A stretch of 64,000 nucleotides of DNA, taken from the NCBI GenBank assembly GCA_964576525.1, contig CAZNVH010000041.1, positions 7,326 through 71,325 on the forward strand, written 5' to 3'. The position numbers and the translations under genes were made by a program. Under the pieces are notes generated by a model, which worked only from the letters and a program-made list of their open reading frames with translations, searched no databases and was not told the DNA's origin. Origin of the DNA: an uncultured Enterobacteriaceae bacterium (GTDB lineage: Bacteria > Pseudomonadota > Gammaproteobacteria > Burkholderiales > SG8-39). Below, one piece after another: positions 48,281 to 48,364 of this stretch. Within the stretch, counting starts at the first letter, position 1. Every line of letters begins with the position of its first letter.

Positions 48281-48364
48281 TGCCCGGGGCCGGACTCCAA
48301 CCGGCACGGCCTTGCGGCCAGGGGATTTTAAGTCCCCTGCGTCTAGCAGTTTCGCCACCCGGGC
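48281..48364 (-). tRNA. tRNA-Leu(TAA); CCA not encoded
   Basis: GCCCGGG/CCCGGGC-A acceptor; GGGGA-CTTAAAA-TCCCC anticodon arm; long variable arm GGCC-GCAA-GGCC. Confidence 0.92.

Follow-up and report, generated by a model that had tools for sequence, protein, structure and literature searches.

The tertiary pair formed by G19 of the D-loop and C56 of the T-loop is taught as nearly invariant in cytoplasmic tRNAs. It serves as a platform that is touched by RNase P, by the L1 stalk, L5, and A-site finger of the ribosome, by leucyl-tRNA synthetase (LeuRS), and by several modification enzymes. The elbow of the tRNA displays the flat face of the 19:56 pair, and most readers stack on that face; the ribosome (A-site finger, L5, and L1 stalk) contacts the elbow chiefly through this pair, RNase P and RNase Z grip the elbow like a clamp, and CCA-adding enzymes contact it by hydrogen bonding and van der Waals interactions (PMC4810234). 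Contacts with the 19:56 pair have been described for LeuRS and TruA as well (PMC12360207). Engineered changes at the two sites have been described in several tRNAs. No single change at position 19 or 56 was tolerated in yeast SUP4oc (PMC4117946). In Aquifex tRNALeu, G19C made charging unmeasurable and the compensated pair G19U:C56A restored it (PMC2377443), and in human mitochondrial tRNASer(UGA), either C19:G56 or A19:U56 restored the serylation that was lost with G19C (PMC10412605). Given flat-face stacking and engineered compensation (PMC4810234, PMC10412605, PMC2377443), a Watson-Crick pair of altered identity is expected to have a small effect, except on base-specific readers of C56 such as TruB, which contacts a "strictly required" C56 (PMC3973310). 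Our literature searches yielded engineered mutants but no report of a natural bacterial tRNA with C19:G56; they also returned passing "C19-G56" wording for the elbow of an A-site tRNA in a tmRNA-ribosome cryo-EM paper.

The closest genomic counterpart of the gene described here is leuZ of E. coli, which we take to be the last gene of the glyW-cysT-leuZ cluster in the order uvrC-pgsA-glyW-cysT-leuZ. The DNA analyzed here (the window) is a stretch of 64,000 nucleotides from an uncultured soil Burkholderiales species, and its tRNA-Leu(UAA) gene occupies 48281..48364 on the minus strand. The same strand carries, in order, uvrC (49211..51124; Pfam UvrC domains; the linked marker used for the tree described below), a pgsA-like CDP-alcohol phosphatidyltransferase gene upstream of the tRNA array (48639..49214; Pfam PF01066, E = 3.9e-39), tRNA-Gly(GCC) as the first tRNA of the array (48545..48620), tRNA-Cys(GCA) (48421..48494), and tRNA-Leu(UAA). 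Both upstream tRNAs, which were identified with ARAGORN and Rfam, have canonical elbows. This uvrC-pgsA-tRNAGly-tRNACys-tRNALeu order recurs in relatives from the same genus and the same order, and by position the tRNA-Leu(UAA) gene is the counterpart of leuZ. It also resembles leuZ in being a class II tRNA with a 3-bp D-stem, A73, the anticodon UAA, and D-loop and T-loop of equal lengths. It differs from leuZ in having C19:G56 in place of the canonical elbow pair, in lacking an encoded CCA, and in being followed after 18 nt by a gene for 3-hydroxyanthranilate 3,4-dioxygenase (47753-48262, minus strand; Pfam 3-HAO, E = 7.5e-50). The 18 nt separate A73 of the tRNA from the dioxygenase ATG on the same strand, and an AAGG lies 9 nt upstream of that ATG. 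No minus-strand terminator was predicted in 47700-49400, a stretch that includes the spacer between the two genes. This arrangement suggests that the dioxygenase gene is cotranscribed with the tRNA array, in which case 3' processing of the tRNA would generate the 5' end of the mRNA.

The minus strand of the window contains all three of the tRNA genes that ARAGORN called: Leu(taa) at 48279-48364, Cys(gca), and Gly(gcc). The first of these is an 84-nt class II tRNA counted to discriminator A73, and its match to Rfam RF00005 (48364..48281) scored 49.9 bits, where the cut-off is 29, and included 0 nonstandard pairs. The full RNA reads GCCCGGG-UG-GCG-AAACUGCUAGA-CGC-A-GGGGA-CUUAAAA-UCCCC-U-GGCC-GCAA-GGCC-GU-GCCGG-UUGGAGU-CCGGC-CCCGGGC-A. 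It comprises, in order, the 5' strand of the acceptor stem (GCCCGGG, paired with CCCGGGC), U8 and G9, the D-stem (GCG paired with CGC) enclosing the D-loop region of positions 13-22 (AAACUGCUAGA), the anticodon arm (GGGGA-CUUAAAA-UCCCC), the variable arm (GGCC-GCAA-GGCC), the T-arm (GCCGG-UUGGAGU-CCGGC), and A73. The anticodon UAA at 48328..48330, which reads UUA (and UUG), was assigned both by ARAGORN and from the sequence. All the cloverleaf features of RF00005 that we looked for are present (7-bp acceptor stem, D-arm, 5-bp anticodon stem, 5-bp T-stem, and 7-nt loops), as are the long variable arm, A73, and the leucine-identity core of U8, A14, A15, and U48, as judged against published leucine identity elements (PMC2377443, PMC9976931). 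Every stem pair is Watson-Crick, unlike those of a canonical relative (L002) that contains G:U pairs.

The earlier note on this DNA, which gave no strand, had reported C19 in the D-loop and G56 in the T-loop as reciprocal changes that keep a Watson-Crick pair, and reading the minus strand bears this out. C19 lies at 48346 (G on the plus strand; alignment column 20) and G56, in the T-loop UUGGAGU, at 48298 (C on the plus strand; alignment column 75), whereas canonical relatives have G19 and C56. In the same register, those relatives read CUGGUAGA and UUCGAGU rather than AAACUGCUAGA and UUGGAGU. Comparison with the matching stretches of 47 canonical genus copies, which read GGUAGAC and GUUCRA, places the two deviations exactly at positions 19 and 56. 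Among the conserved elbow bases, G18, U54, U55, and A58 are present and G19 and C56 are not, with the pairing between the two changed positions retained. Other D-loop registers that would restore GG were ruled out, as the only G residues of the loop are G18 and G21. A whole-window Rfam run at the gathering threshold listed the Cys and Gly genes (59.9 and 68.8 bits for these neighbors) and not tRNA-Leu, which was recovered at 49.9 bits in a 501-base search; the whole-window miss thus reflects the speed filters and does not count against the gene. A noncanonical elbow combined with a long variable arm can slip past the Rfam speed filters.

The host assembly (G000) is a metagenome-assembled genome (MAG) of 99 contigs, 3.36 Mb, and 67.6% G+C, with an estimated completeness of 97%. 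ARAGORN found 41 tRNAs in it, a single one of which is Leu(UAA), and that same gene is the only carrier of C19 or G56. A tRNA similarity search together with ARAGORN revealed no second, canonical Leu(UAA) copy in this 97%-complete genome. The codon served by this tRNA is rare, as the earlier note had stated: TTA accounts for 0.43 per 1,000 codons and 0.43% of Leu codons. It is nevertheless present in ~354 of 2,803 long open reading frames (ORFs) with high GC3 (about 13%), indicating that tRNA-Leu(UAA) is little used yet still needed. A low-demand Leu(UAA) tRNA of this kind has a parallel in bldA, the tRNA-Leu(UAA) of Streptomyces, which is known for its part in developmental regulation. Like bldA, the gene described here provides a high-GC genome with its only reader of TTA, a very rare codon; the altered elbow is found here, and a regulatory role is a feature of bldA. 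In the same genome, two tRNA-Ser(CGA) calls lie 3.3 kb apart (G000:C15:157254-157342 and C15:160662-160751) and have the anticodon stem-loop, T-arm, and acceptor ends in common; in the first, the D-arm region is deviant and lacks an AGAGUGG-type D-loop, and this call, judging from its sequence, may be a degraded duplicate.

A73 is followed directly by a CCCCC trailer (48276..48280, minus strand) in which CCA is absent. The CCA end must therefore be added, as had been claimed, and the genome contains a CCA-adding-enzyme-like gene (435 bits versus a cut-off of 451, with an ORF start that is probably overextended). Genes for pcnB and truB are present as well, and matches to TrmA (TIGR02143) in this genome were weak and below the cut-off. 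Nearly all other tRNAs of the genome have an encoded CCA. Two standard tRNAs lack a complete one, Leu(UAA) and Thr(UGU), the latter with an incomplete CCA (G000:C29:7524-7597; ARAGORN end ...CACC); a doubtful 78-nt Ser(GGA) call on contig C87 is also without it. The encoded CCA has been lost in canonical genus copies too (L006, L008, and L020), and because the loss is scattered over swapped and canonical copies, it appears to be unrelated to the swap.

To place the swap among relatives, we compared orthologous genes. The window's tRNA-Leu is 93-94% identical to canonical copies from the genus, and the orthologous Leu(UAA) genes fetched from 40 relatives were all canonical. A pattern search detected the swapped form in 5 of 71 genus genomes (G000, G048, G049, G066, and G077). 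An unbiased tally was obtained with a pattern that permits G or C at both sites and that matched 52 copies in 48 genomes: 47 copies had G19 and C56, 5 had C19 and G56, and 0 were mixed, so that no single-mutant intermediate was seen among the 52 genus copies. The co-occurrence of the two changes in the genus is more than chance. One genome of the genus (G015) has three identical uvrC-Gly-Cys-Leu copies, on contigs C4, C5, and C6; this is a MAG with 7% contamination, and the triplication is probably assembly or binning redundancy. In a maximum-likelihood tree of UvrC proteins from 30 genus genomes, the five swapped genomes fell within one nine-row clade (SH-aLRT 91), alongside four canonical genomes, and the tree requires at least two changes of state. 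Forcing the swapped genomes together cost 17.8 log-likelihood units and was not rejected (p-AU 0.099). A single origin of the swap in this sub-clade is thus allowed but not proven.

We also scanned for the swap on a larger scale, using for both genomes and metagenomes a Leu(UAA)-specific swapped pattern only. Among 185,579 species genomes (one genome per species), there were 7 matches: 4 Burkholderiales soil MAGs that are members of the genus, 1 Xanthobacteraceae MAG, and 2 Patescibacteria. The metagenome scan returned 28 contigs, ~20 of them of Burkholderiales type and the rest of Patescibacteria type. Most of the ~20 Burkholderiales-type contigs carry the Gly-Cys-Leu array. They share synteny with the window, but identity to it in the flanks is only 76-83%, which indicates that they represent many species rather than one species resampled, and the ~20 swapped contigs also contain compensatory changes in the stems. 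The swap is not common, then, but it is recurrent, being found in the genus sub-clade, in one Xanthobacteraceae MAG, and in several Patescibacteria. The refuting condition named in the earlier note, a swap that is common in its tRNA family, is contradicted by the 5 carriers among the 48 genus genomes with a match and by the 7 matches in the whole species set, and the check in relatives that the note proposed is answered by the same two changes in 4 other species genomes and in ~20 metagenome contigs from separate assemblies.

These distributions bear on two rival explanations. The first is that it is an assembly or sequencing artefact, which might be considered for a genome that is a 99-contig MAG. 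The identical changes were present, however, in 4 other species genomes, in 28 metagenome contigs, and in 3 genomes outside the Burkholderiales, all from separate projects; the chance of an artefact is vanishingly small, and this explanation is effectively refuted. The second is that the gene is a decaying or nonfunctional copy, with TTA being read otherwise or being lost. The absence of an encoded CCA, the Rfam score (49.9 bits versus 59.9 and 68.8 bits for the neighbors), the failure of the whole-window run to list the gene, and the great rarity of TTA would all fit such a copy. On the other hand, this is the sole Leu(UAA) gene of a genome estimated to be 97% complete, its stems are all Watson-Crick, more so than those of the canonical L002, and the swap has been retained in many species with flanks that are about 80% identical. 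In addition, the genus tally contains no single-mutant states, TTA persists in about 13% of long ORFs, and the encoded CCA has also been lost from the canonical L006, L008, and L020. We consider decay very unlikely. The earlier argument against both decay and sequencing error, which had been made from the reciprocal changes, is thus reinforced by the single-copy status of the gene, by its perfect stems, and by its conservation across many diverged species.

Outside the Burkholderiales, the pattern matched in 19 of 30 relatives of the Xanthobacteraceae MAG, each of them canonical; with the MAG included, these 31 genomes yielded 20 matching copies, among which there was no single-mutant intermediate. 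The Xanthobacteraceae genome G469 is flagged as unpublished, and statements on it are publishable only with the permission of its depositors. Since the swap is private to the Xanthobacteraceae MAG in that group and occurs besides in the genus sub-clade and in Patescibacteria, it must have had at least three separate origins. The Patescibacteria copies (L031, L035, L046, L048, L049, L051, and L061) have the same reciprocal swap as the gene described here, but their hosts have reduced or unusual translation systems, whereas ours is a free-living 3.4-Mb proteobacterium in which the 40 other tRNAs are canonical.

The presence of swapped Leu(UAA) genes in distant lineages could also point to horizontal import, in which a phage or a CPR bacterium, for instance, supplied the gene that replaced the native leuZ. 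Compared with the Patescibacteria and Xanthobacteraceae versions, however, the window's tRNA differs at several acceptor-stem positions, in the T-stem, and in the variable arm, and all seven acceptor-stem pairs differ from those of the Xanthobacteraceae copy. The gene also lies within the native uvrC-pgsA-Gly-Cys-Leu array and is 93-94% identical to canonical genus copies. Import is extremely unlikely on these grounds, and the sequence comparisons make mutation in place appear far more likely.

An alignment of 58 distinct Leu(UAA) sequences showed pairing in 99.2% of cells, and 17 of 25 pairs had changed on both sides. The 19:56 pair was G:C in 34 sequences, C:G in 24, and unpaired in 0, figures that have to be read with the knowledge that the swapped rows were gathered with a pattern demanding both changes and that the unbiased figure is the genus tally. 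Position 57 was G in 24 of 24 swapped aligned sequences (the pattern allowed A or G), whereas canonical sequences have G57 or A57; the swapped sequences represent few independent lineages.

Taken together, the sequence data make it likely that this is a working, single-copy tRNA-Leu(UAA) whose elbow pair has been reversed by a compensated double transversion. We propose that the gene descends, at its native locus, from the canonical form found in the genus, that transversions of G19 to C and of C56 to G compensated each other and so inverted the tertiary Watson-Crick pair that sits at the outer corner of the L, and that the reversed pair has since been kept in the sub-clade by purifying selection while the flanking genes diverged to about 80% nucleotide identity. 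Because C:G would have the same geometry as G:C, both the lock between D-loop and T-loop and the flat stacking face should be kept. Folding, cleavage by RNase P, charging by LeuRS, and ribosome contacts would then be roughly normal, the reversed pair maintaining the L-shape and serving all partners that read shape, and after 3' trimming the CCA end would be supplied by the CCA-adding enzyme. By analogy with the engineered tRNAs, the swap is probably only a slight change to a working tRNA. The earlier note had suggested that altered recognition of the elbow could matter; any such effect would be small, apart from that on base-specific readers of C56. Like the Aquifex tRNALeu and human mitochondrial tRNASer(UGA) mutants, this tRNA has a Watson-Crick 19:56 pair of altered identity; unlike those laboratory constructs, which were studied in charging assays only, it is a natural chromosomal allele that is present in many species and is the sole gene for its codon.

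The partners predicted to act poorly on such a tRNA are enzymes that recognize C56 as a base, foremost among them the pseudouridine-55 synthase TruB. Since TruB contacts a C56 that is strictly required, Psi55 is predicted to be weak or absent in the swapped tRNA-Leu, which probably lacks it. Passage through an unpaired intermediate was probably eased by the very low use of TTA, as a defect in a tRNA that serves so rare a codon could be tolerable. Single-mutant intermediates would be deleterious, which fits their absence from our tallies. Low demand for TTA does not account for the occurrence of the swap in Patescibacteria.

That recurrence is a reason to weigh an adaptive explanation, in which the swap hides the tRNA from a base-specific reader of C56 or G19 (possibly a tRNA-cleaving toxin, a phage or defense nuclease, or a modification enzyme) or serves as a regulatory device that adjusts how much UUA-reading tRNA is available, in the manner of bldA of Streptomyces. 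In its favor, the same swap has occurred in the same isoacceptor separately in the genus sub-clade, in a Xanthobacteraceae MAG with 19 canonical relatives, and in Patescibacteria. Furthermore, a search of 401 genomes sampled across 167 genera of the order, with a pattern that accepts any Leu anticodon, turned up the swap only in the Leu(UAA) of this genus, and one enzyme that needs C56, TruB, is indeed known (PMC3973310). However, the base-specific reader or toxin is hypothetical, the recurrence in Leu(UAA) comes from scans that were aimed at Leu(UAA) alone, and within the Burkholderiales the swap is essentially one evolutionary event; neutral compensation fits the data with fewer assumptions. 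We therefore regard an adaptive origin as unlikely. A more specific version is a "stealth" design, in which the shape is kept for the ribosome, RNase P, and LeuRS and the C56 and G19 identities are removed from an enemy or enzyme that reads them; the reader could be a nuclease or toxin directed at tRNA-Leu(UAA) or a TruB-type modification. If true, such a design would account for the recurrence of the swap in UUA-reading tRNAs from unrelated bacteria, but we consider it distinctly unlikely and favor the compensated double transversion of a working tRNA.

C19 gives bases 17-19 (YGC) a similarity to the 3' strand of the D-stem (CGC). In minimum-energy folds computed with RNAfold, positions 8-12 of the swapped proteobacterial sequences (our own, L032, L033, and L037) paired with 17-20a and not in the D-stem, and this competing pairing was absent from the canonical and from one Patescibacteria sequence. 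Position 17 in swapped Burkholderiales copies is only U or C, both of which are able to pair with G12. Tertiary contacts are left out of such folds, which gave poor results for one canonical relative as well, and we place no weight on them with respect to function; a competing hairpin is a possible folding cost or alternative state of the modeled RNA.

Engineered pairs of altered identity were already known; what this case adds is C19:G56 in a free-living proteobacterium, together with a defined clade that carries it, a tally without exceptions at the two sites, and independent occurrences elsewhere. On a practical level, gene finders and filters that give weight to GG and TTC can misscore or miss such tRNAs, as the whole-window Rfam run did. 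The swap also offers a clean example of a double transversion across a fitness valley with no intermediates observed. The swapped tRNA is a ready-made natural substrate with which to find partners that read the bases, TruB being the obvious candidate. Finally, the long maintenance of a reversed pair in the sole tRNA for a codon suggests that, in vivo, most partners of the elbow would need the geometry of the 19:56 pair and not the identity of its bases.
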